From: a virus
Taxonomy: Duplodnaviria > Caudoviricetes
Length of the DNA: 64,000 bases
Strand: one strand, 5' to 3'
Virus record (IMG/VR): IMGVR_UViG_2657245717_000001
Span: 24,080-88,079 of that record
Positions 2,326 through 63,506 of the stretch are shown piece after piece. Below the pieces are notes generated by a model. That model was given only the letters and a program-made list of their open reading frames with translations, had not been told where the DNA came from and did no database searches. The first letter of the stretch is position 1. Each line of letters begins with the position of its first letter. Position numbers and translations under genes: made by a program.

Positions 2326-2847
2326 ATGAACCAGTCCACCTACCTCGGCATCACACCCACCACCCAGGCCTCCACCCCGGCTCTCACCATCACTGTCCAC
2401 GGCCGGCCAGCTCCTCAGGGCTCGAAACGCTACGCCGGGCACCGCCGCAACGCCGCCTCCGGGCGCGTCTCCGCCGTCCTGGTCGAACAGTCCAAGCGCG
2501 TCAAACCCTGGCGAGCCCAAGTCACCACCGCCACCCAGCACGCCATGCGCGACGCCCACCAAACCGCGCCCCTCGACGGGCCCCTCGCCGCCGACATCAC
2601 CTTCACCGTCCTCAAGCCCACCAGCGCCCCCAAACGCCGCCGAACCTGGCCCACCACCCGCCACAGCGGAGACCTCGACAAGCTCCTCCGCTCAACCTTC
2701 GACGGCATCGCAGACGCCGGAGCTGTTGTCGACGACGCCCGCATCATCCGCGTCGCCGCCACCAAGACCTACCCCGGCGAGCACCCCCTGGCCCTCGACC
2801 AGCCCGGCGCCCTCATCCGCCTGTACACCCTCGGAGACCCCTCATGA
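2326..2847 (+). CDS. rusA: RusA-like Holliday junction resolvase
   Basis: GRPAPQGSKR and DLDKLLRSTFDG...DDARI motifs. Confidence 0.85.
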   Translation: MNQSTYLGITPTTQASTPALTITVHGRPAPQGSKRYAGHRRNAASGRVSAVLVEQSKRVKPWRAQVTTATQHAMRDAHQTAPLDGPLAADITFTVLKPTSAPKRRRTWPTTRHSGDLDKLLRSTFDGIADAGAVVDDARIIRVAATKTYPGEHPLALDQPGALIRLYTLGDPS

Positions 2848-3317
2848 CCAGCCCCAACAACCAGCCCGAATCCGGCCGTACCATAATTCGTGCCAGTAAT
2901 CACTGGCAGGATCGTGCCGCGTGCAAGACCCCCGACGCCGAAGCGATCTTCTTCCCCGTGTCGCCCAACGATGCAACGATCTCGGCGGCCAAAGAGATCT
3001 GCTACGGCTGCCCCGTCATCGAGAACTGCAAGCGCTTCGCCCTGGAGAACCGCGAGACGCATGGGGTGTGGGGCGGCATGTCGGAGAAGGAGCTCCAGGC
3101 GGCGCGTCGGGCCCCGCAGAAGCCGCGCGCAGTACGGATCGTCGAGAAGCAGCGTGCCGAGTGGGAAGCGGCCGTCGCGGAGCACGGTGACGACGACAAG
3201 GCCATCGCGCGAGCGTTGCGCGCTGACGTGCGAACCGTCGAGCAGGTCCGGCAGCTCGTGGGCGGCGCGTCCGCGGGAAGCGGATGGCGGCAGGATCAGA
3301 TGGGAGCAGCGGCATGA
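2844..3317 (+). CDS. whiB: WhiB-family transcriptional regulator
   Basis: WQDRAAC...IFFP...AKEICYGCPVIENC...GVWGGMSEKE (four Cys plus GVWGG). Confidence 0.92.
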   Translation: MTSPNNQPESGRTIIRASNHWQDRAACKTPDAEAIFFPVSPNDATISAAKEICYGCPVIENCKRFALENRETHGVWGGMSEKELQAARRAPQKPRAVRIVEKQRAEWEAAVAEHGDDDKAIARALRADVRTVEQVRQLVGGASAGSGWRQDQMGAAA

Positions 3318-8397: not shown

Positions 8398-9125
8398 CTG
8401 CCCTGCCCTGCCCCACCCCGACCAAGAGCCGCTACGCCACCACCGCGGCCGCCGACCAGGCCGCCCGCCACGTGCAGATACCCGTCGGCACGATCATGCG
8501 GGCCTATGAGTGCCAGTGCGGCTGGTGGCACCTCACCCGCAGCAGCACGCCGGCCGAGCCCATCCCCTACGAAGACCTCACACCGGCTGACGGCGACGAG
8601 CAGCTCCTCGCCGGCGTCGGCCACAACCTATTCGCCGACGTCGTCGCCCGCGACATTCACGGCCGCGGCCCCATTGAGGAAGCCCTCGCCCTCCGCCACC
8701 CGACGAACGCACTCCGCTGGAAAGAAGCCCTGAAGGCGGCGTGGATCGCGTCGGAGAAGCAGATGGCCGCTCGCCGCGGTGACACGTCTGCGCAGGCGAA
8801 GGAGTGGCGGGCGCGGGCCGAGCAGTATCGGGCGGCGTTGCGGGTCCGCCGGCTGGAGGCGAAGCGCCGCGCGCACCCGTACCCGCGCACGCAGGGGCAG
8901 GCTCTCTCGCCGGCCGAGCAGGTGGCGGTTGAACGTGCTCGTGCTGCGGGGAGGCCGCGTCGGGAGCAGCGGCGTATCGCGGGTGATGTGGCGGTGAAGC
9001 TGTTGATCGCCGCGCATGAGGACGAGTTCTACGGGCTGTTCGCTGCGGAGTGTGAGCGGCTCGGGTTGCCGTTGACGGCTCGGGATGAGGCCCGTGTGCA
9101 GCGTGGGTTGGGGGAGGCCGCGTGA
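8394..9125 (+). CDS. hypothetical protein with Zn-binding motif
   Basis: CPTPTKSRY...RAYECQCGWWHLT. Confidence 0.7.
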   Translation: MTALPCPTPTKSRYATTAAADQAARHVQIPVGTIMRAYECQCGWWHLTRSSTPAEPIPYEDLTPADGDEQLLAGVGHNLFADVVARDIHGRGPIEEALALRHPTNALRWKEALKAAWIASEKQMAARRGDTSAQAKEWRARAEQYRAALRVRRLEAKRRAHPYPRTQGQALSPAEQVAVERARAAGRPRREQRRIAGDVAVKLLIAAHEDEFYGLFAAECERLGLPLTARDEARVQRGLGEAA

Positions 9126-9273
9126 GCCCTGGATGTGTGACTGTCACGGCTGGCTGTGGGCATGTGTGGCGGCTGCCCGCGATGGTCGACTTGGCCGGCC
9201 GTGTGGTTGTGCCTGCTGAAACGTGGTGCCGCGCTCATCAGGTGTGGCACACCGACACTGAGGAGACCGAACG

Positions 9274-9552
9274 ATGAGCGACACCCTTCCCGCCGACACT
9301 CTCCGCACGGCCGCCGAACGGCTGCGCGATGTCGCTCCGCAGATCACTGGGCCTCTCGCTGGACTCGCCGACCCCGTAGCCGACTGGCTGGAGGCAGCCG
9401 CACGCGACTACGAGGCCAGCGTCACCGCCGCCGACCAGGTGTTCCACGACGACCCGGAGGGGCGGCAGGCGTTCATCACCACCGGGCCCGGTGCCCCGTC
9501 TCCGCACGCCCTCGCTGTCGCCCACCACATCCTCGAAGGCGGTCCCCGATGA
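9274..9552 (+). CDS. hypothetical protein
   Basis: GAGGAG RBS; LRTAAERLR...VADWLE...ALAVA. Confidence 0.7.
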   Translation: MSDTLPADTLRTAAERLRDVAPQITGPLAGLADPVADWLEAAARDYEASVTAADQVFHDDPEGRQAFITTGPGAPSPHALAVAHHILEGGPR

Positions 9553-10187
9553 CCGCTGGTGGTTCTGCATTTCAGCGCGCTGGCCAGTTAGCCCGCCGGA
9601 GCTGGTGGCAGCGTCTCCTCGCCCTCCTCGGTATACGCACCGCCCACGCCCGCCGTACCGCCTCGGCCGCCGCTCGCTGGGCCCACGGTGCCGAAGGCGA
9701 AGCCCACACCGCCCGCCTCCTCGCCCCACTCCAGACAGCGGGCTGGCACCTCCGCCACGACCTCGCCCTCCCGAAGTCCCGCGCCAACCTCGACCACGTC
9801 CTCGTCTCCCCGTGCGGCACTGCGCTCGTCGTCCTCGACACGAAACACTGGCACCGCGGCAAACCCACCCACCTGGTTGGCGGCCGTATCCACTGCGGTA
9901 CTGACGACCGGCACGGCCAGGTCGAGGCCGTCGCACGGTACGCGCAGCGCGTCGCCACCACCCTCGGGCTCCCCGCCGGTCAGGTGGCGCCGCTCCTCGT
10001 CATCCACGGCTCCCCGATCACCGGCGGCCGGCTCGAAACCCACACGCCCCACGGCCTGGTGCACGTCCTCGGTACGGACGGGTTGTTGCCCACGCTCCAC
10101 GCCGCACCCCAGGGCCGTCCGAACGCCCGCGCCGCGGCCAGGCTCACGGCCCGCGTCGACCAGCATCTCCGGCCCTACCAGCAGTAG
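9549..10187 (+). CDS. NERD-domain nuclease-related protein
   Basis: WAHGAEGE...RHDLALP..RANLDHVLV...VVLDTKHW. Confidence 0.85.
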   Translation: MTAGGSAFQRAGQLARRSWWQRLLALLGIRTAHARRTASAAARWAHGAEGEAHTARLLAPLQTAGWHLRHDLALPKSRANLDHVLVSPCGTALVVLDTKHWHRGKPTHLVGGRIHCGTDDRHGQVEAVARYAQRVATTLGLPAGQVAPLLVIHGSPITGGRLETHTPHGLVHVLGTDGLLPTLHAAPQGRPNARAAARLTARVDQHLRPYQQ

Positions 10188-10199
10188 CCCGCACCATCC

Positions 10200-10236
10200 G
10201 GCGCCCACCCCAGTCCACAGGGGTGGGCGCCTTCTC
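10200..10236 (+). terminator. intrinsic terminator-like hairpin
   Basis: GGCGCCCACCCC/GGGGTGGGCGCC 12-bp stem after the NERD gene. Confidence 0.6.
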
Positions 10237-10270
10237 CCGTTTCGAGCGGAGACCGGCGTATCCTCAGCCG

Positions 10271-10501
10271 GTGGCAATCGAACTGACTCCCGAGTTGATC
10301 GCTCTGCAAGAGGCTGCTGATGCGGCTGGCCAGCGTGTGTCTGCGACGCCGAATGACGGTAAAGCGCGGCAGGCGTGGTTCACGGCGTCTGCTGAGGTGC
10401 AGGCCGCGGTGACGGAGCACGCTGCGGCTGCTGGGCTGAACCGTTTCGAGCTGGAGAAGGCTCTGCGCCGGCATGTGCGGCATCCGGAGCTGCGGGACTG
10501 A
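10271..10501 (+). CDS. hypothetical protein
   Basis: Helical 76-aa ORF. Confidence 0.55.
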   Translation: MAIELTPELIALQEAADAAGQRVSATPNDGKARQAWFTASAEVQAAVTEHAAAAGLNRFELEKALRRHVRHPELRD

Positions 10502-10630
10502 CACGCCTCTTCCCTCGCCCTGTTGTGCGCCCGCATCCTGGCCGTGCAGCAGGGCGGTGTCGTGTCCGCCCTCGGGGGAGACGTCGGCTGGCGACCATTT
10601 TGCGGAGGTGCGCAATATGGTCGGGAGGGG

Positions 10631-10789
10631 GTGGCATCCGTGACGTGTGGCCAGTGTGGCGCGGAGGTGGCGGGCCTGGATGGGCGGTATGCGTGTGGGG
10701 TGTGTGGGTGGGTGAACCGGTATGACGAGGGGCATCGGGCGTTGCCGTCGGCGGAGGACGATCCGGACTACCCCGGGCCCGGCGCTTGA
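10631..10789 (+). CDS. small zinc-ribbon protein
   Basis: CGQCG...CGVCG; GGGAGG RBS. Confidence 0.6.
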   Translation: MASVTCGQCGAEVAGLDGRYACGVCGWVNRYDEGHRALPSAEDDPDYPGPGA

Positions 10790-10983
10790 CGGTCTTGGGC
10801 GGCGAGGAGCTGCCTGAGGTGCTCCCGCCGTGCATGGACAGCTCGCCCTAGCTGTTCGACGTCGAGGGCGGCTCGGCGGTGCGCAGCGCTTCCTGGGGTG
10901 GCTGCGGCGAGGCGTGCGCGGGCCTTCTCCAGTGATGCTTCGCGGGCGGCGAGGCGCCGCTGGACGGTGTCGATGTTCTGCAT
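10768..10983 (-). CDS. hypothetical coiled-coil protein
   Basis: MQNIDTVQRRLAAREASLEK. Confidence 0.45.
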   Translation of the reverse strand: MQNIDTVQRRLAAREASLEKARARLAAATPGSAAHRRAALDVEQLGRAVHARREHLRQLLAAQDRQAPGPG

Positions 10984-11080
10984 GGGCTCAGGGTCGCTGA
11001 GGTGGTGGCCGGCGGGTGGGGGTTTTGGGTGTCTGGGGGTGAAATCGCTGGTCATGGGGTGCGGCCCTAGACTCGAACGT

Positions 11081-11413
11081 ATGAACGACCTCACGCCCGA
11101 GCAGCGCCTGGAGAAGCACCGCGCCGTGCGGGACTGGCTGGGCTGGCAGTACCGGCAGGCACAGAAGACGGTGAACGACCTGGAGCGGCAGATCACCGCT
11201 GACCGGCACCGGGCGGAGAAGGCCCGGCGGGAGCGGTCGTGGAAGGTGCAGCCGGAGCGTGCGGGTCGTCCGGCGATGCTGCATCGCGGGGGCTGCTCCC
11301 TGTTCAAGACGGAGCTGGGCTATCTGAACCGCGAGGAGGCGGTGATCGCGTTGGAGGAGGAGGGGTTGGAGGCGTGTGAGGTGTGCCGGCCGGAGGTGGA
11401 TCTGCGGGGGTGA
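11081..11413 (+). CDS. DUF6233-like small protein
   Basis: MLHRGGC...REEAVIAL...EACEVCRPE; ACTCGAACGT upstream. Confidence 0.7.
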   Translation: MNDLTPEQRLEKHRAVRDWLGWQYRQAQKTVNDLERQITADRHRAEKARRERSWKVQPERAGRPAMLHRGGCSLFKTELGYLNREEAVIALEEEGLEACEVCRPEVDLRG

Positions 11414-11663
11414 CCTGGCGGCGGCATCGGCTTCGAGGTGACGGCGCCGCCAGGACGTGCAGAGCATGCCACGGGGCCCGGACCATGACGGTCGCGGGCC
11501 CCGATGTGTTTCGAGAGTCGTTAGTCCTGGGTGGGCTCTGTCGCGCCCCAGCCGAGGTCGACCACACCCCACCCGATGTCCGCGAACCCCCAGCCGATGT
11601 CGCTGCTCATCACGTCCCCCTCCCTGCTGCTTGTGGTGCTCGGCAGCCTACGCCCGGCCACCG

Positions 11664-12716
11664 TCACGCGGACCAGGTTCCACGGATCGCTGCCGTGTTG
11701 AATCCGGGCCCGTAGGCGACCATCACGCCCTGCGCCCCGGCTGCGGGCGGCTCCGCGTGCGTCCGCTCCAGAATCCGCAGCACCGACGGCCCGCCCAGGT
11801 TCCCTTCATCGGCGAGCGTCGCCGTCGAGTGGCGCGTGTCGTGCTCGTCCAGGCCGAGAGCCCGCGCCGTATCCGTGATGATCCGCTGACTGCCGGGGTG
11901 GATGACAGCCCAGTCCACGATGTGCTGCTGGCCCAGCCACCCGGTGACGCCGGGCAGCACGTCGTCCGCAGCGCTGAGGGCTTCCTTCGTGGAGTCGAAG
12001 TGCAGGCCCGTGCTGTCGATGCGGCCGGCGTACCGGGTGAGACTGTCCGGGAGAACGTGCTCGTACGTGTCGGCCGGCCCGGCGAGGGTGAAGCCGGGGC
12101 CGTGGGGCTGGTCGCTGACAATGGTCGCCGCGGCACTGTCCCCGAACAGCGCCTTGTAGATCATGTGCTCGACCTGGTTGTCGGCGTGGTTGTAGATCGT
12201 GGAGATGACCTCCGCAGCCACCACCAGGACACGAGACCCGGGCCGGGCGGCCACCATGTCGGTGGCGCGGATGAGGGCCTGTGTGCCGCCGGCGCAGGCG
12301 AGGGTGGTCAGCCCGATCCGCTGCACAGTGGGCGACAGGCCGAGGCGCTGCACGAGGTGGATGTCGAGGCCGGGGACGGCCCAGCCGGTGGAGTGCGTGG
12401 TGACGATGCCGGTGATGTCGGCCGGGTCGAGGCCGTGGAGGGCGAGCGTGTCGCGGGCGGCTTGCTCGGCCATGTCGAGGGCATCTTCGAACGCCGCGGC
12501 TGCGCGGTTCCCGACGGGCGCGGTGCCGGTGATGGTGTCGGCGGTGAGCGGCCTGGTGAAGTGCCGGGTCTGCACTCCGGTGTTGCCGACGATGCGGAGG
12601 ATGGACCGCAGCCGCGGATGGTCGGCGTGGTGGTGCCGAATGTCGTCCGCTATCTCAGCGGTGGTGACTTTGTGGGCGCCGAGGATGGTGGTGGGCTGGG
12701 CAATGTGGATGGCCAT
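11664..12716 (-). CDS. type III polyketide synthase (chalcone-synthase fold)
   Basis: Catalytic Cys (TLACAGG), His (VIHPGS), Asn (EGNLGGPSV); LFGDSAAA; AYGPGF. Confidence 0.93.
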   Translation of the reverse strand: MAIHIAQPTTILGAHKVTTAEIADDIRHHHADHPRLRSILRIVGNTGVQTRHFTRPLTADTITGTAPVGNRAAAAFEDALDMAEQAARDTLALHGLDPADITGIVTTHSTGWAVPGLDIHLVQRLGLSPTVQRIGLTTLACAGGTQALIRATDMVAARPGSRVLVVAAEVISTIYNHADNQVEHMIYKALFGDSAAATIVSDQPHGPGFTLAGPADTYEHVLPDSLTRYAGRIDSTGLHFDSTKEALSAADDVLPGVTGWLGQQHIVDWAVIHPGSQRIITDTARALGLDEHDTRHSTATLADEGNLGGPSVLRILERTHAEPPAAGAQGVMVAYGPGFNTAAIRGTWSA

Positions 12717-12762
12717 GAGGTCTCCCCTGGGCAGTTTCTGAACCGGGTGCGGGGGAGTGCTC

Positions 12763-12792
12763 ACGGTACGGCTCTTTGGCTTGATCGTTGCC
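12763..12792 (-). promoter_or_regulatory. phage-type promoter GGCAAC-N18-TACCGT upstream of the PKS
   Basis: Same hexamer and 18-nt spacing as the late-gene promoters. Confidence 0.7.
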
Positions 12793-12882
12793 CCGGCTTT
12801 TCGCCGTCTTGATGCGTGACCAGCGGCGTGTGGGGCCGCCGCTGGTGTGGTGGTGCGCGTGGGGTGGCTGAGACGCGTGTGG

Positions 12883-13707
12883 TCAGCGTGCTCGGAGCAT
12901 CGGTGTGCGGGCGTGCGCACGCTCCGGCCCCGCGTGGAAGACGAGGATGACGAGGCGGGCGCCGGGTGCGGCCATCGGCTGCGCCGCGCACATCGTCACC
13001 CACCCATCCCCCAGTACCGCGTGCCGTATCGGCCGCTCGTCGCCGTCCGGGTGGATGTAGCCCGTCGAGCCCTGCGTGTACAGGGCGTGGAGTTCGGGGT
13101 CGGCGTGCACGTCCCGCTCGATCGCCTGAAGGATGGGGTCGTCGGGGCGGGCGGCGAGCGCCGCCTGAAGCTGAGGGAGGACGAACGGGGCCCAGGCGGT
13201 CGCCCAGTCGTTGAGGTGTTCGCGGCCGTCCCACAACATCCACCTCATGGTGTTGTCCGGGGCTTTCCTGTCGGGGAACAGCTCGGCGAACTGCGCGTTG
13301 CAGGCCAGCAGGCCCCACGATGCGTCCGTCACGTACGCCATGTGCGTGATGCCGTCCACCGCCGTCTGCCACACCCCCGGCACCTGGTGCCCGGACTGCG
13401 GGTAGAGGGGCGCCGGCGGGTCCTCCGCGCGCGCGTACCGGTACAGGGCCACCCACTCCTGCTCGGTGAGTGAGAGGAGCTGCGCTACGGCCTGGAGGAG
13501 GTCTGAGGGCGGGTGTTTGTAGATCCCTGATTCGAGGCGGTGGTAGGTGCCGATGGCCCGGTTGGTGAGGAAGTCGACTTGTTGTTGGGAGAGGCCGGGT
13601 GCGCGGCGTCCGCTGCCGGTGGGGCGGGTGAGGCCGTGGGTGGTGGGGTCGATGAGGGCGCGTCGTTCTTGGAGGAGGGCTTGGAGGGCTTTTTTGCGGG
13701 TGTGCAT
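12883..13707 (-). CDS. MmyB-family regulator (XRE HTH plus PAS-like ligand-binding domain)
   Basis: LLQERRALIDP...GRRAPGLSQQQV...YHRLESG; AYVTDASWGLLACN; RHAVLG. Confidence 0.88.
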   Translation of the reverse strand: MHTRKKALQALLQERRALIDPTTHGLTRPTGSGRRAPGLSQQQVDFLTNRAIGTYHRLESGIYKHPPSDLLQAVAQLLSLTEQEWVALYRYARAEDPPAPLYPQSGHQVPGVWQTAVDGITHMAYVTDASWGLLACNAQFAELFPDRKAPDNTMRWMLWDGREHLNDWATAWAPFVLPQLQAALAARPDDPILQAIERDVHADPELHALYTQGSTGYIHPDGDERPIRHAVLGDGWVTMCAAQPMAAPGARLVILVFHAGPERAHARTPMLRAR

Positions 13708-14081
13708 GTTCGGATTCCCCCGTGCTACTGACTGGTTATCAAGCCGGTTCTTGTGGGCGTGTTTTTGGTGTGAAAAACCTACCGAAGAAAGGTGGTGGGT
13801 GTGTGGTGCATGCTCGGTTCTGCGGCGCTCCGCCTGGTCCTGTTGGGGCTGGTGTGGGGGGTTGTGGCCGTCTCGTGACAGTGCTGTGGCGGGGTTCCGG
13901 GGATTCCGGGTTTCCGCTTGCGGTGGTGTCAGCTTTTTAGGGGCGTGCAGGGAGTCGAATTCGCGGCTTGGGTGGCCGTGAATACCGCAGCCTCTCCTTG
14001 CACGTCCCTTTTCTGCTGCCCGAAATCGGGGTGGGGAAGCAGCGGGGGCGGCCCGGTGGGGTCGGGCCGCCGGTGGTGCGG

Positions 14082-14489
14082 TCAGGACGGGCCGAAGCGC
14101 CACCAGCCGTCGTAGCCGTCCGGGACGGCCGGATAGTTCGCGAGCATCGGTTGGAGGATCGCGAGGTGCCGCTGCTGCTCGGCGAGGGTGACGTTGCCCC
14201 AGTACGAGTCGCCGTCCCAGCGGCCGTGGGTGTCTCCTCCGTAGCGGCCGTCGGTGTGCTGTTCCAGGAACTGGCGGGCGTCGGCGGGCTCGGGGTGCTG
14301 GAGGTCCCAGAGGTGTCCGATGCAGGCGACGGTGACGCCTCTACGGCGCCGGAACCAGACGGCGTCGATGGTGCCGTCGAAGGTGTAGTCGTTGCGGCCC
14401 TGCGGGGTGTCGGTGCGGCTGCCGCGCAGGCTGCTGAGGTCGACGGCGTAGGGCTTGCGGGAGATCAGGAACTTGTCTTCGCGGATCAC
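14082..14489 (-). CDS. hypothetical protein
   Basis: AAGGAG RBS, codon usage. Confidence 0.65.
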   Translation of the reverse strand: MIREDKFLISRKPYAVDLSSLRGSRTDTPQGRNDYTFDGTIDAVWFRRRRGVTVACIGHLWDLQHPEPADARQFLEQHTDGRYGGDTHGRWDGDSYWGNVTLAEQQRHLAILQPMLANYPAVPDGYDGWWRFGPS

Positions 14490-17282: not shown

Positions 17283-17587
17283 TAGAGGCTCCAGAGGGTT
17301 GGTTGAAGGTCGATGAGCGCCAGCTCGGTCTGGCCGGGGAGGACGTCGTCGGGGCGCGGTGCGGGGATGGTGGCGACGCCGGTGCGCTGCCGCTGCTGCC
17401 GTTCGCATACGGGCCCGAGGCCGGACGGTGTGGGGTGGCGCATGGCTCGTCCGCAGCGTCGGCAGTACGCGCTGGTGTGCGTGCTGGGCGGAAGCGCGGC
17501 GGGTGGTGTGTCGCCGGGGAGGGGGAGTGTGGTGATGGGCCGGCCGCGCCAGTGAGGTTTGGTGGGGTGCGGGGCGACGGTCGTCAT
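17282..17587 (-). CDS. small Zn-finger protein (DUF6011-like)
   Basis: CRRCGRAM...GLGPVC. Confidence 0.6.
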   Translation of the reverse strand: MTTVAPHPTKPHWRGRPITTLPLPGDTPPAALPPSTHTSAYCRRCGRAMRHPTPSGLGPVCERQQRQRTGVATIPAPRPDDVLPGQTELALIDLQPTLWSL

Positions 17588-17772
17588 GCCGCGTCGGGGA
17601 CGCCGGGGCCGGCCTGTCGGGCGCGGCGCTTCTCGGCGTCGATGGCGTCGAGGGCGGCGGTGAGGTCGGCGAGGTGTTGGGCTTGTTCGGCGGGGGTCCA
17701 GGCGGTGGGGCGTTGGCCGCCGAAGTTGCCGGTGGGGATGTCTTCGGTGAGGGTTTTCGCGAGGTGGTTCAT
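17584..17772 (-). CDS. hypothetical protein
   Basis: GGAGG RBS; first ORF of the leftward operon. Confidence 0.6.
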   Translation of the reverse strand: MNHLAKTLTEDIPTGNFGGQRPTAWTPAEQAQHLADLTAALDAIDAEKRRARQAGPGVPDAA

Positions 17773-23662: not shown

Positions 23663-23692
23663 ACGCTATCGAGCATTTCGCGGGGTATTGCC
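23663..23692 (-). promoter_or_regulatory. phage-type promoter GGCAAT-N18-TAGCGT upstream of the replication operon
   Basis: Motif match with 18-nt spacing. Confidence 0.6.
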
Positions 23693-26058: not shown

Positions 26059-26526
26059 ATGGCGCTCAACGACCCCGCCCGCGACGCCGCCGAGCACCTC
26101 TACCAGCAGCTCGCCCGCCTCGCCTGGATCGACAACGACAACACCGACCGCATCCACGTCACCCTCAGCCTTCCCGACGGCACGCTCATCGGCTCCACCG
26201 ACCTCGCCGCCACCACCATCGGCGAACTCGGCGACACCGCCCAGCACAACGCCGACGACTACCAGCAGGCCATCGGCGAGCAGGTCGCCTACTTCGAAGA
26301 GACCCTCATCGACCCGCAGCTCGCCCAGGACGTGGAGGACTGCCTCTCGCCCTACCTCGACGGGCAGCTCCACCCCGACGCGCTCGACGAGATCGAGGAG
26401 CACCTGAACAGCCTCGACCTGATGGACCTGCTCAACGTGGCACGGAGCGCCCCGGACGAGGAGAGCGGCATCCGCGCTTTCGACTACCTCGTCACCGGCG
26501 AGATCGACGAGGACGGAGCCCTCTGA
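26059..26526 (+). CDS. acidic hypothetical protein
   Basis: Codon usage; D/E rich. Confidence 0.7.
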   Translation: MALNDPARDAAEHLYQQLARLAWIDNDNTDRIHVTLSLPDGTLIGSTDLAATTIGELGDTAQHNADDYQQAIGEQVAYFEETLIDPQLAQDVEDCLSPYLDGQLHPDALDEIEEHLNSLDLMDLLNVARSAPDEESGIRAFDYLVTGEIDEDGAL

Positions 26527-40066: not shown

Positions 40067-40116
40067 GGGAACACAAGTCCACACATCAGGCATGATCTGT
40101 AACAGGCGCGGGGCCT
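40067..40116 (+). promoter_or_regulatory. late promoter GGGAAC-N18-CATGAT plus AGGCGCGGGGCCT leader
   Basis: Motif shared with 42743 and 44700. Confidence 0.65.
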
Positions 40117-40143: not shown

Positions 40144-40635
40144 ATGAGCGCATCCAAAGCACAGCAAGCCGTCACCGCCGAACGCCGCGCCAAGCTCATC
40201 CGCATGCGCCTCGCCGGCCACGAGTTCGACGAAATCGCCCGCGTCCTCGGCTACTCGTCGGCGTCCGCCGCGTCCAAGGACATGATCCGCGTCCTGGAAA
40301 AGCGCCGCGACGAGCAGGACGCCGAGGTCAGTGTTTACCGGCAGCAGGAAGGCGACCGCCTCGACGCGCTCCTCCTCGCCCACTGGGACGCCGCCACCAG
40401 CGGTGAAGACCCGAAGGCCGCCGACCTCGTCCTGAAGATCATGGACCGGCGGGCCAAGCTCATGGGCCTCGACATGCCCGTCCGCGCCGAAGTGTCCGGC
40501 CCCGACGGCGGCGCCGTCCCCCTCGGCACCGGAGCCCTCGCCGAACTCCAGCAGCTCATCTCCATCGCAGGGCAGACCGGTGACCCCGACACGCTCCTCG
40601 ACGGCGAGCAGGACACCGGTGACGACACCGTTTGA
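40144..40635 (+). CDS. terminase small subunit
   Basis: N-terminal HTH, RLDALL...IMDRRAKLMGLD; upstream of TerL. Confidence 0.8.
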   Translation: MSASKAQQAVTAERRAKLIRMRLAGHEFDEIARVLGYSSASAASKDMIRVLEKRRDEQDAEVSVYRQQEGDRLDALLLAHWDAATSGEDPKAADLVLKIMDRRAKLMGLDMPVRAEVSGPDGGAVPLGTGALAELQQLISIAGQTGDPDTLLDGEQDTGDDTV

Positions 40636-42742: not shown

Positions 42743-42792
42743 GGCAACGCTGCCCATGTCGGCCCGTACCCTGATCAGTAGGCGCGGGGCCT
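42743..42792 (+). promoter_or_regulatory. late promoter GGCAAC-N18-TACCCT plus AGGCGCGGGGCCT
   Basis: Motif match upstream of portal. Confidence 0.7.
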
Positions 42793-44699: not shown

Positions 44700-44748
44700 G
44701 GCAACACATTCGCCGTCTTGTGCTTTCCTTGATCTAGGCGCGGGGCCT
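44700..44748 (+). promoter_or_regulatory. late promoter GGCAAC-N18-TTTCCT plus AGGCGCGGGGCCT
   Basis: Motif match upstream of scaffold. Confidence 0.65.
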
Positions 44749-50176: not shown

Positions 50177-50619
50177 TCGCCCGACTGCCCGTCACCATGG
50201 CCATGTCCGCGCTCCTCACCTCCGCCAGCGGCCTGCCCGTCGGGCGCGGCCAGCAGCCCGGCAAGCCACCGCCGTACTACCTGCTGTACAGCCTCGACAC
50301 CCAGCTCGGTGGGCCACCATTCGCCGACATGAACGACGACGTGACGTTCGTGTACCAGGTGACATGCGTGTCCGGCCCCGACCCGGCCCGACCCAACTCC
50401 GCCGGGTCCGCCGACCAAGGCGAGTGGATGGCCGACAAGGCTCGCGAAGCGTTCCTCGGCCGCGACCCTGCGACCGGCCTGTGGCTGTACCCGATCGTCG
50501 TGCCTGGCGCCAAAGTCACCGACCGGCGCCTCGACGTCGAAGCAGGGGCAACAAGTGATCCAGGAGATGCCATCATGAGCTATGTGCTGAGGCCCGCGAT
50601 CTCGCTGACCTCCACCTGA
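50173..50619 (+). CDS. tail terminator (putative)
   Basis: PPYYLLY...YQVTCV; synteny. Confidence 0.65.
   Translation: MIARLPVTMAMSALLTSASGLPVGRGQQPGKPPPYYLLYSLDTQLGGPPFADMNDDVTFVYQVTCVSGPDPARPNSAGSADQGEWMADKAREAFLGRDPATGLWLYPIVVPGAKVTDRRLDVEAGATSDPGDAIMSYVLRPAISLTST
50547..50576 (+). promoter_or_regulatory. late promoter GGCAAC-N18-CATCAT upstream of major tail gene
   Basis: Motif match inside the 3' end of the preceding CDS. Confidence 0.55.
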
Positions 50620-62543: not shown

Positions 62544-62573
62544 GGCAACACATCCCGGTCTAGGCCATAGCCT
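62544..62573 (+). promoter_or_regulatory. late promoter GGCAAC-N18-TAGCCT upstream of lysis region
   Basis: Motif match. Confidence 0.7.
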
Positions 62574-62684: not shown

Positions 62685-63506
62685 GTGCCCGACACCACCA
62701 TCCGGCAATACGAAGTAGCAGGCCACCTCGGCCGGCACCAGGTCTTGGACCCGCGCAGCCTCGCCTACCGGCGGCGCTACGACGGGCAGCCGCTCCGCGC
62801 CACGGCGTGGGAGCCGCGCGTCCCGGTCCTCGACCAGCGGAACCTGCACGCCCAGGGCATCCGCACCAGCGTGCACGGTCACGCCGAGGACGTCGACGCG
62901 CTCGCCTCCTGCACCGGCCAGGCTGCCGTTGCTGCCCTGTCCGTGCTCCTCACGCCCGAGCACGCCATCCAGGCCGGGCTCGACACCCGCGACCCCGCCG
63001 CCTGCCAAGAGTTCGCGATCGGCTTGTACTCGCAGGCCACCCACCTCGACCAGTGGCACGACTACGCGTGGCCGTCGCAGGACACCGGCTCGTCCGGCCT
63101 CGGCGTCGCCAAGGCCATGCGGGCGCGTGGGCTGATCGACCAGTACGGGCACGCCACCACCGCCGAGGAACTGTGTGTGCTGCTCCAGACGGGCCCGGTA
63201 CTCCTCGGCATGCCCTGGCACGCGGCGATGTCCGAGCCCGACACGGACGGCTTCATCGACGCCGACCCCGACTGGGCGAGCAGCCCGGTGGAGGGCGGCC
63301 ACGAGGTGTGCGTGACCGCGCTGGAGGCCGTCGCGACGGACGGCGACCAGCTCATGCCGGAGCACACCATCCTCCGCATCCGGAACTCCTGGGGCCGCGG
63401 CTGGGGCGATCACGGTGACGGCCGCCTCCGCCTCAGCACGTACCTCAAGCTCCGCCCCGAGATCGACCTCGTACAGCCCCGCCTCGACGCAAGGACCCGC
63501 CCATGA
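62685..63506 (+). CDS. papain-like (C1) cysteine peptidase
   Basis: VLDQ, ASCTGQA (Cys), GGHEVC (His), RNSWGRGWG (Asn). Confidence 0.85.
   Translation: MPDTTIRQYEVAGHLGRHQVLDPRSLAYRRRYDGQPLRATAWEPRVPVLDQRNLHAQGIRTSVHGHAEDVDALASCTGQAAVAALSVLLTPEHAIQAGLDTRDPAACQEFAIGLYSQATHLDQWHDYAWPSQDTGSSGLGVAKAMRARGLIDQYGHATTAEELCVLLQTGPVLLGMPWHAAMSEPDTDGFIDADPDWASSPVEGGHEVCVTALEAVATDGDQLMPEHTILRIRNSWGRGWGDHGDGRLRLSTYLKLRPEIDLVQPRLDARTRP

Follow-up and report, generated by a model that had tools for sequence, protein, structure and literature searches.

The stretch of DNA analyzed here, which we refer to as the window, is 64,000 nucleotides (nt) long and covers positions 24080-88079 of a virus record of 88,079 bases (IMGVR_UViG_2657245717_000001; rated 97% complete). 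We report that a gene for type III polyketide synthase (PKS) and the regulator gene upstream of it in the window very probably correspond, as orthologues, to the vioA/vioB violapyrone cassette, present here on a Streptomyces phage-plasmid of the pCQ3/pCQ4/pZL12 type, a conclusion drawn from sequence comparisons. The system itself is already known, in that we have re-identified a published two-gene antibiotic cluster. Measured against the accessible parts of the two vio papers (PMC4924298 and PMC5898002), from which all statements about these papers below are taken, what is new is that the vio plasmid type is a phage-plasmid, that VioB is an MmyB-type protein, and that a promoter-like motif box stands mainly in the phage-plasmid copies of the cassette. 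The features of the cassette are:

11664..12716, minus strand: vioA-type type III PKS (putative violapyrone synthase orthologue) of 350 amino acids, assigned from Pfam, PDB relatives, the catalytic triad and identity to pCQ3

12883..13707, minus strand: vioB-type regulator of 274 amino acids with a putative XRE-type helix-turn-helix (HTH) and an MmyB-like ligand-binding domain, assigned from Pfam and identity to pCQ3/pCQ4

13708..14007, minus strand: non-coding DNA of ~300 nt 5' of the regulator gene, recognized by block conservation in phage-plasmid and chromosomal copies

Genes were called by third-position G+C content, the G+C content of the window being ~70%. The open reading frame of the PKS spans 11664..12920 on the minus strand, and its start is most likely at an internal ATG (position 12716), which yields a protein of 350 amino acids. 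Both PKS domains scored above the Pfam cut-off of 27 bits (Chal_sti_synt_N, PF00195: E = 7.6e-27, 94.6 bits; Chal_sti_synt_C, PF02797: 28.7 bits), and the triad C141/H273/N306, which aligned with the triad region of 1u0m, was invariant in 34 of 34 aligned relatives. The best solved relatives of the PKS were 1u0m (1.9e-40) and 3v7i, which is Gcs (3.2e-40). The name "PhlD" that NCBI attaches to many relatives of this PKS was not used; no NCBIfam model reached its cut-off, the top one being DpgA with 117.9 bits against a cut-off of 425. At the protein level, the window PKS was 94.6% identical to the pCQ3 coding sequence WP_012840496.1, and VioA is reported to be 95% identical and 97% similar to the same protein (pCQ3.110c; Table 1 of PMC4924298). 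The residues mutated in VioA (I174, L190, Y229, and S242; PMC5898002) are found at the same positions in the window PKS.

The regulator gene lies upstream of the PKS gene on the same strand, with 166 nt between the two. Its product matched MLTR_LBD (PF17765; E = 2.8e-12, 47.5 bits, cut-off 26.3), and its XRE-type HTH matched HTH_31 with 21.9 bits, which is under the cut-off of 27 for that family. A profile built from 16 regulator relatives matched the phage immunity repressor 8bny (E = 7.9e-4) and, weakly, the MmyB-like protein 3pxp (E = 0.012). In protein comparisons, the regulator showed 100% identity to its counterpart on pCQ3 and 94.5% identity to WP_015060958.1 of pCQ4, and VioB is reported to be 95% identical to the latter (pCQ4.19c) and 94% identical to the former, the W9 regulator (PMC4924298). 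These results bear out the starting point of an earlier note on this DNA, which had described an intact type III PKS with a Cys-His-Asn triad immediately downstream of an MmyB-family gene, amid phage genes. Its statement that tailoring or host genes are missing from the surroundings is a fair one, as the neighbors code for DUF6233, NERD, LuxR-type, DUF6085, HIT, and VUT proteins, along with proteins without a family.

The published cluster was characterized in S. somaliensis SCSIO ZH66, in which the formation of violapyrone B, a 3-methyl-4-hydroxy-6-alkyl-alpha-pyrone, depends on the 350-amino acid type III PKS VioA, the sole enzyme needed (PMC4924298). The authors propose that violapyrones are assembled from fatty-acid-derived beta-keto acyl starters and methylmalonyl-CoA (PMC4924298 and PMC5898002). 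The vioA gene resides on a circular plasmid of ~85 kb, adjoined by the XRE-family gene vioB, which acts negatively, since violapyrone B rises about eightfold upon deletion of vioB; knock-outs of flanking genes were without effect, and therefore the vio cluster comprises two genes only (PMC4924298). The window resembles the ZH66 cluster in that two genes form the unit, an XRE-family regulator gene standing immediately upstream of that for a 350-amino acid PKS, on a plasmid of that size; the window regulator has 274 amino acids and VioB has 272. Loci with vioAB were found in 21 more genomes, most of them on linear plasmids (PMC5898002, section 5). As an MmyB-family protein, VioB is probably a ligand-relieved repressor of the vioA promoter, which it would keep shut down as long as its PAS-like pocket is not occupied by a lipid-like ligand. 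This bears on the proposal of the earlier note that the two genes form a synthase plus receptor pair. The proposal holds insofar as a synthase and a ligand-type regulator stand by themselves on a phage-plasmid, and it falls short in that the pair very probably is a known vioAB cluster, whose regulator acts as a repressor of the synthase gene in the published work.

The element that carries the cassette is, judged by its gene content, a pCQ3/pCQ4/pZL12-type Streptomyces phage-plasmid, predicted to be a plasmid of about 85-95 kb. PHROGs matches included a large terminase, portal, scaffold, major head, major tail, tape measure, tail fiber, and peptidase, which agrees with the phage setting that had been recognized earlier, and a Pfam scan that took in 40 window proteins identified DnaB, GntR-type regulators, DNA ligase, SSB, RusA, and a WhiB-like protein. 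Identity of the capsid protein is 99.4% both to its counterpart on the circular plasmid pCQ4 of Streptomyces sp. W75 and to the one on a plasmid of S. albidoflavus. Over its first 25 kb, the window is mosaic-collinear with this S. albidoflavus plasmid (64% covered at 94.3% identity), with pCQ4 (35% at 93.5%), and with pCQ3 (31% at 93.1%). The vio paper PMC4924298 was the only relevant literature that we found on pCQ3 and pCQ4.

The products of related enzymes suggest two other roles for the pyrone. Cpz6, Gcs, and DpyA share the enzyme class and the alkyl-pyrone type of product with the window PKS and differ from it in their genomic contexts and partner genes. Germicidins inhibit spore germination, and germicidin-like pyrones could by analogy act on spore germination or differentiation of the carrier or its neighbors, to the benefit of the element. 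It is in keeping with this idea that Gcs and 1u0m are the two best solved relatives of the PKS, that VioA groups with Gcs, DpyA, and Cpz6 in a published tree (PMC5898002, section 5), that the developmental regulator WblA of the host controls vio expression (in the wblA deletion, vioB transcripts go down and vioA transcripts go up; PMC4924298), and that the element has a WhiB-like protein of its own (2844-3317). We nevertheless consider control of host development unlikely, given that the identity to Gcs is only ~35%, that the accessible parts of PMC4924298 do not report any effect of vioA or vioB mutations on germination or development, and that the reported violapyrone activities are antibacterial and anti-influenza, at micromolar levels. 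Host WblA controls the vioB and vioA transcripts, and it is conceivable that the WhiB-like protein of the phage-plasmid (2844-3317, plus strand; PF02467, 3.6e-21) acts on the cassette as well. The second role would be that of a sulfate carrier, in which the pyrones are sulfated and pass the sulfate on to another metabolite, as Cpz6 products do in caprazamycin synthesis. Violapyrone B and presulficidin A are one compound, and the identity to VioA is 53% for Cpz6 (36% for DpyA; PMC4924298), but the vio cluster has only two genes and another context, its authors make the case for a different role, and a sulfotransferase family was absent from the 40 window proteins scanned with Pfam, which makes a sulfate carrier highly improbable.

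The earlier note had stated that the PKS carries its own copy of a motif, GGCAAC-N18-TANNNT, that also precedes the terminase, portal, scaffold, tail, and lysis genes. This held exactly for the PKS, the portal gene, and the lysis-type peptidase gene; the terminase, scaffold, and tail copies conform to a looser pattern only (GGSAAY-N18-YWNNNT). The copies in the window are:

12763..12792, minus strand: putative promoter-like motif GGCAAC-N18-TACCGT, an exact match that ends 46 nt 5' of the PKS start codon

17810..17839, minus strand: looser copy GGCAAC-N18-CACCCT, before the small gene 17584-17772

23663..23692, minus strand: looser copy GGCAAT-N18-TAGCGT, standing 296 nt ahead of the next called gene

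40067..40096, plus strand: looser copy GGGAAC-N18-CATGAT, in front of the gene at 40144, upstream of the large terminase gene

42743..42772, plus strand: exact copy before the portal gene

44700..44729, plus strand: looser copy before the scaffold gene

50547..50576, plus strand: looser copy before the major tail gene

62544..62573, plus strand: exact copy in front of the lysis-type peptidase gene at 62685

In the window, the exact pattern occurred 3 times (0.06 expected) and the looser pattern 8 times (2.46 expected), counts that were reached in 0 of 100 shuffles in either case. With our gene calls, 7 of the 8 looser matches stand 37-111 nt 5' of a start on the same strand. When copies of the cassette were compared, the -10-like hexamer before the PKS and the C-rich stretch after it were common to nearly all of them, whereas the -35-like GGSAAY box at the N18 distance was found in 12 of 20 phage-plasmid copies vs. 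2 of 63 chromosomal copies, which suggests that the vioA promoter of phage-plasmid copies gained or retained the -35-like box of the element itself. Well-placed motif matches in the relatives' loci numbered 13 in 391 kb of phage-plasmid DNA and 3 in ~1,300 kb of chromosomal DNA; this density adds little beyond the box count because the PKS promoter itself accounts for most of the 13. A sigma factor encoded by the element was rejected as the reader of the motif, as the record contains no Sigma70_r2 match and its region-4-like matches are all sub-threshold; the reader may be a host factor. Sigma-70 consensus promoters and intrinsic terminators were not found within 11300-14300, nor did Rfam return a match within 11400-14300 (E up to 1).

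Two further observations concern regulatory DNA and proteins of the element. A 155-amino acid protein (26059-26526, plus strand) contains an anti-sigma-factor-type zf-HC2 zinc finger (PF13490, 2.8e-5), in a record without a sigma region 2 match. Also, four intergenic palindromes of ~19 bp with the form GTGATTGC-GGG-GCAATCAC are located before the window start (at ~18490, 19934, 20047, and 20923 of the record, i.e., 5589 to 3156 bases before the window); these are candidate operators or iterons, with a half-site similar to the GGGGCAAY box of the motif.

The ~300 nt of DNA 5' of the regulator gene, for which we aligned 32 of the 83 copies and viewed the raw sequences in addition, is probably the promoter and control region of the regulator, as judged from its conservation. 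It travels with the cassette (the same region is seen in L001 and L004-L084) and is rather A+T-rich near the regulator gene, where most copies, though not that of the window, have a TAGACT/TACACT-type hexamer. A small reading frame that overlaps the regulator start was rejected as coding, since it is broken in many copies, including that of the window. We also dropped a palindrome (GGAATTCC / GGGTACCC) 5' of the regulator gene, which was present in only 4 of 20 phage-plasmid copies; equal-size control regions contain such palindromes in 20-57 of 83 copies.

We then looked at how the cassette is distributed. A profile (alignment-based) scan with one genome per species yielded 167 loci, all in Streptomyces, of which the best 80 were examined; a single-protein query against the same genome contigs returned no match. 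The pairing proved to be very stable across genomes and plasmids: the regulator was the immediate upstream neighbor of the PKS, in the same orientation, in 80 of the best 80 loci, as well as in ZL12 and in one IMG/VR contig. Other window genes were found within 10 kb in 17 of these 80 loci. The remaining 63 had no phage-plasmid gene within 10 kb and were surrounded by ordinary host genes. More than half of them (36 of 63) occupy one syntenic host locus, whose genes include those for an oxidoreductase, a GNAT acetyltransferase, TetR and MarR regulators, an MFS transporter, an isochorismatase, an acyl-CoA dehydrogenase, and an asparagine synthase. The others are divided among four smaller recurrent contexts and five single ones, in all of which the genes are ordinary host genes. 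Two loci are situated close to the ends of complete chromosomes. In PLSDB, 38 plasmids contained the PKS (E up to 1e-60), with the regulator at most 1 kb upstream in 33, at most 1.3 kb upstream in 3, elsewhere in 1, and not listed in 1. A relative of the capsid protein was present in 35 PLSDB plasmids, 26 of which also had the PKS. Pairs in PLSDB persist down to 43% PKS identity, including one on a Kitasatospora plasmid.

Several arrangements depart from that of the window. Six PLSDB plasmids (CP108296, CP109020, CP109039, CP108254, CP108107, and CP130717) encode a regulator 60-62% identical to that of the window and fall outside the 38 with a PKS match at the above threshold; the regulator may occur there without the synthase or with a decayed one. 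In four phage-plasmids (L022, L023, L025, and L037; ~9000-13500) the cassette is placed directly upstream of the portal and head genes and is co-directional with them, unlike in the window, in which it sits in an accessory arm. In two close relatives of the window, L004 (9434-10001) and pCQ4 (L086; 3325-4268), insertions of 0.57-0.95 kb separate the regulator from the PKS; the pCQ4 insertion is annotated with two small hypothetical genes, and the motif stays beside the PKS in both.

A tree made by a quick method and rooted on five distant relatives resolved the phage-plasmid copies into several lineages, and the phage-plasmid label requires at least 3 changes on well-supported branches. Two chromosomal sets nest within clades that contain phage-plasmid copies (99% support each), and the large syntenic chromosomal group is separate (90%). 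We infer from these patterns that the cassette, together with its conserved control DNA, is an accessory unit that moved at least 3 times between phage-plasmids and chromosomes, with the direction not settled.

This distribution bears directly on the possibility that the cassette is a communication circuit, in which the pyrone is a diffusible signal and VioB the receptor that feeds decisions on lysis-lysogeny, induction, or transfer, as the earlier note had envisaged. Alpha-pyrones are signals in Photorhabdus. The regulator has an MmyB-type ligand-binding domain, and a solved member of the family contained a fatty acid, according to the accessible text of PMC3406030; the vioA promoter motif is shared with structural and lysis genes of the element, with its box nearly confined to phage-plasmid copies; the cassette is present in 26 of 35 related phage-plasmids; and it directly precedes the portal gene in four loci. 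On the other hand, with 63 of the best 80 of 167 loci being chromosomal, and 36 of these in one host locus, a signal pair that is a phage trait is not what we found. The finding that the earlier note had itself named as one that would speak against its proposal, homologous pairs mainly in host chromosomes outside mobile elements, is largely borne out. Moreover, the PKS is missing from 9 of the 35 related plasmids, the sole role tested for VioB in the accessible parts of PMC4924298 is repression of its own neighbor, no VioB operator is known, and the motif, in an element that encodes no sigma-factor region 2, may be read by a host factor. Our literature search found nothing on a cassette regulator controlling a lysis-lysogeny regulator, and we found no evidence of any link to the control of lysis-lysogeny or transfer. 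The signalling reading is therefore not supported, the shared promoter box and the high frequency of the cassette in the phage-plasmid family being what speaks for it, and we give such a communication circuit little credence. The broader version, in which a pyrone produced from an element-type promoter, or else a host lipid, is sensed by VioB, with an effect on induction, transfer, or spore germination, likewise seems unlikely to us; if true, a small-molecule circuit of this kind would explain why the cassette is retained in about three quarters of the phage-plasmid family.

Comparison with arbitrium-type communication leads to a similar picture, because the likeness is confined to the general idea of a phage-borne signal synthase with a receptor-regulator. 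The signal here would be a polyketide and not a peptide, most copies of the cassette are not on phages, and no link of the cassette to a lysogeny regulator is known.

We return to the vioA/vioB orthology as the preferred reading, against which several points weigh. The assignment depends on a chain of identities with two steps, via pCQ3 and pCQ4; we rate orthology to VioA and VioB as very likely. The product, the repression, and the ligand assigned to this element are presumed by analogy with the S. somaliensis orthologues, and binding of VioB to DNA is not shown in the accessible parts of the vio papers. We take the ZH66 plasmid to be a phage-plasmid because its flanking genes match pCQ3 and pCQ4, which contain capsid relatives; the words "phage" and "MmyB" do not occur in the accessible parts of PMC4924298 and PMC5898002. 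Estimates of the ratio of nonsynonymous to synonymous substitutions (dN/dS) were higher in phage-plasmid than in syntenic chromosomal copies for both the PKS (0.48 vs. 0.26) and the regulator (0.37 vs. 0.17), which could reflect relaxed constraint; being simple Nei-Gojobori counts at ~90% third-position GC, these values are rough and usable only as "below 1". Our guess as to the most likely role of the cassette is that of a lysogenic-conversion trait, in which an antibacterial or otherwise bioactive pyrone would benefit the carrier cell.

The element can also be set beside other known systems. ZL12 (pZL12) has the pair in the same order and on the same strand (pZL12.99 and pZL12.100; the regulator is 65% and the PKS 74% identical), and its record annotates a type III PKS. 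ZL12 and pSLE1 of S. leeuwenhoekii resemble the element in their 86-90 kb size class and in their phage structural genes. At the DNA level only the PKS of ZL12 matches the window, and the rest of the genome has therefore diverged. The accessible text of the pSLE1 paper mentions a PKS and remarks that its neighbors form no cluster, and the accessible part of a 2023 survey names prophages on plasmids as the sole place in which type III PKSs were found. The window regulator shares with MltR (3pxp) and with MmyB of the methylenomycin cluster a domain plan of an XRE-type HTH (putative in the window protein) and a PAS-like ligand-binding domain, as well as a place beside a secondary-metabolite gene, and MmyB-like regulators are described as markers of antibiotic-related genes in the accessible portion of the family paper. 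MmyB, however, is an activator, and most S. coelicolor paralogues are divergent from their target, as far as the same portion goes; VioB is co-directional and acts negatively. By title and abstract we found no published phage-borne vio cluster (Table S3 of PMC5898002 and Table S9 of PMC10023795 may list such elements), and no publication was found that combines MmyB with a type III polyketide synthase.

Additional observations were made on the PKS family and on public sequencing data. The top match of a representative protein search with the PKS was a protein of 4,818 amino acids (P0121) with 12 separate PKS-matching stretches at 27% identity, which appears to be a giant chain of repeated type III PKS-like units. 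Among 24 public sequencing runs, the RNA-type runs each contained at most 0.13 of the sampled words of the stretch. Four runs stored as contigs gave scattered short matches, one of which is a soil metatranscriptome contig of 229 nt on 11784-12012 with 2 differences; such matches cannot show transcription, strand, or level.

The connection between the vio cluster and temperate phage-plasmids of the pZL12/pCQ type, which the vio papers do not draw in their accessible parts, raises the question of whether a phage-borne alkyl-pyrone serves the phage, which can now be tested cheaply in existing strains.

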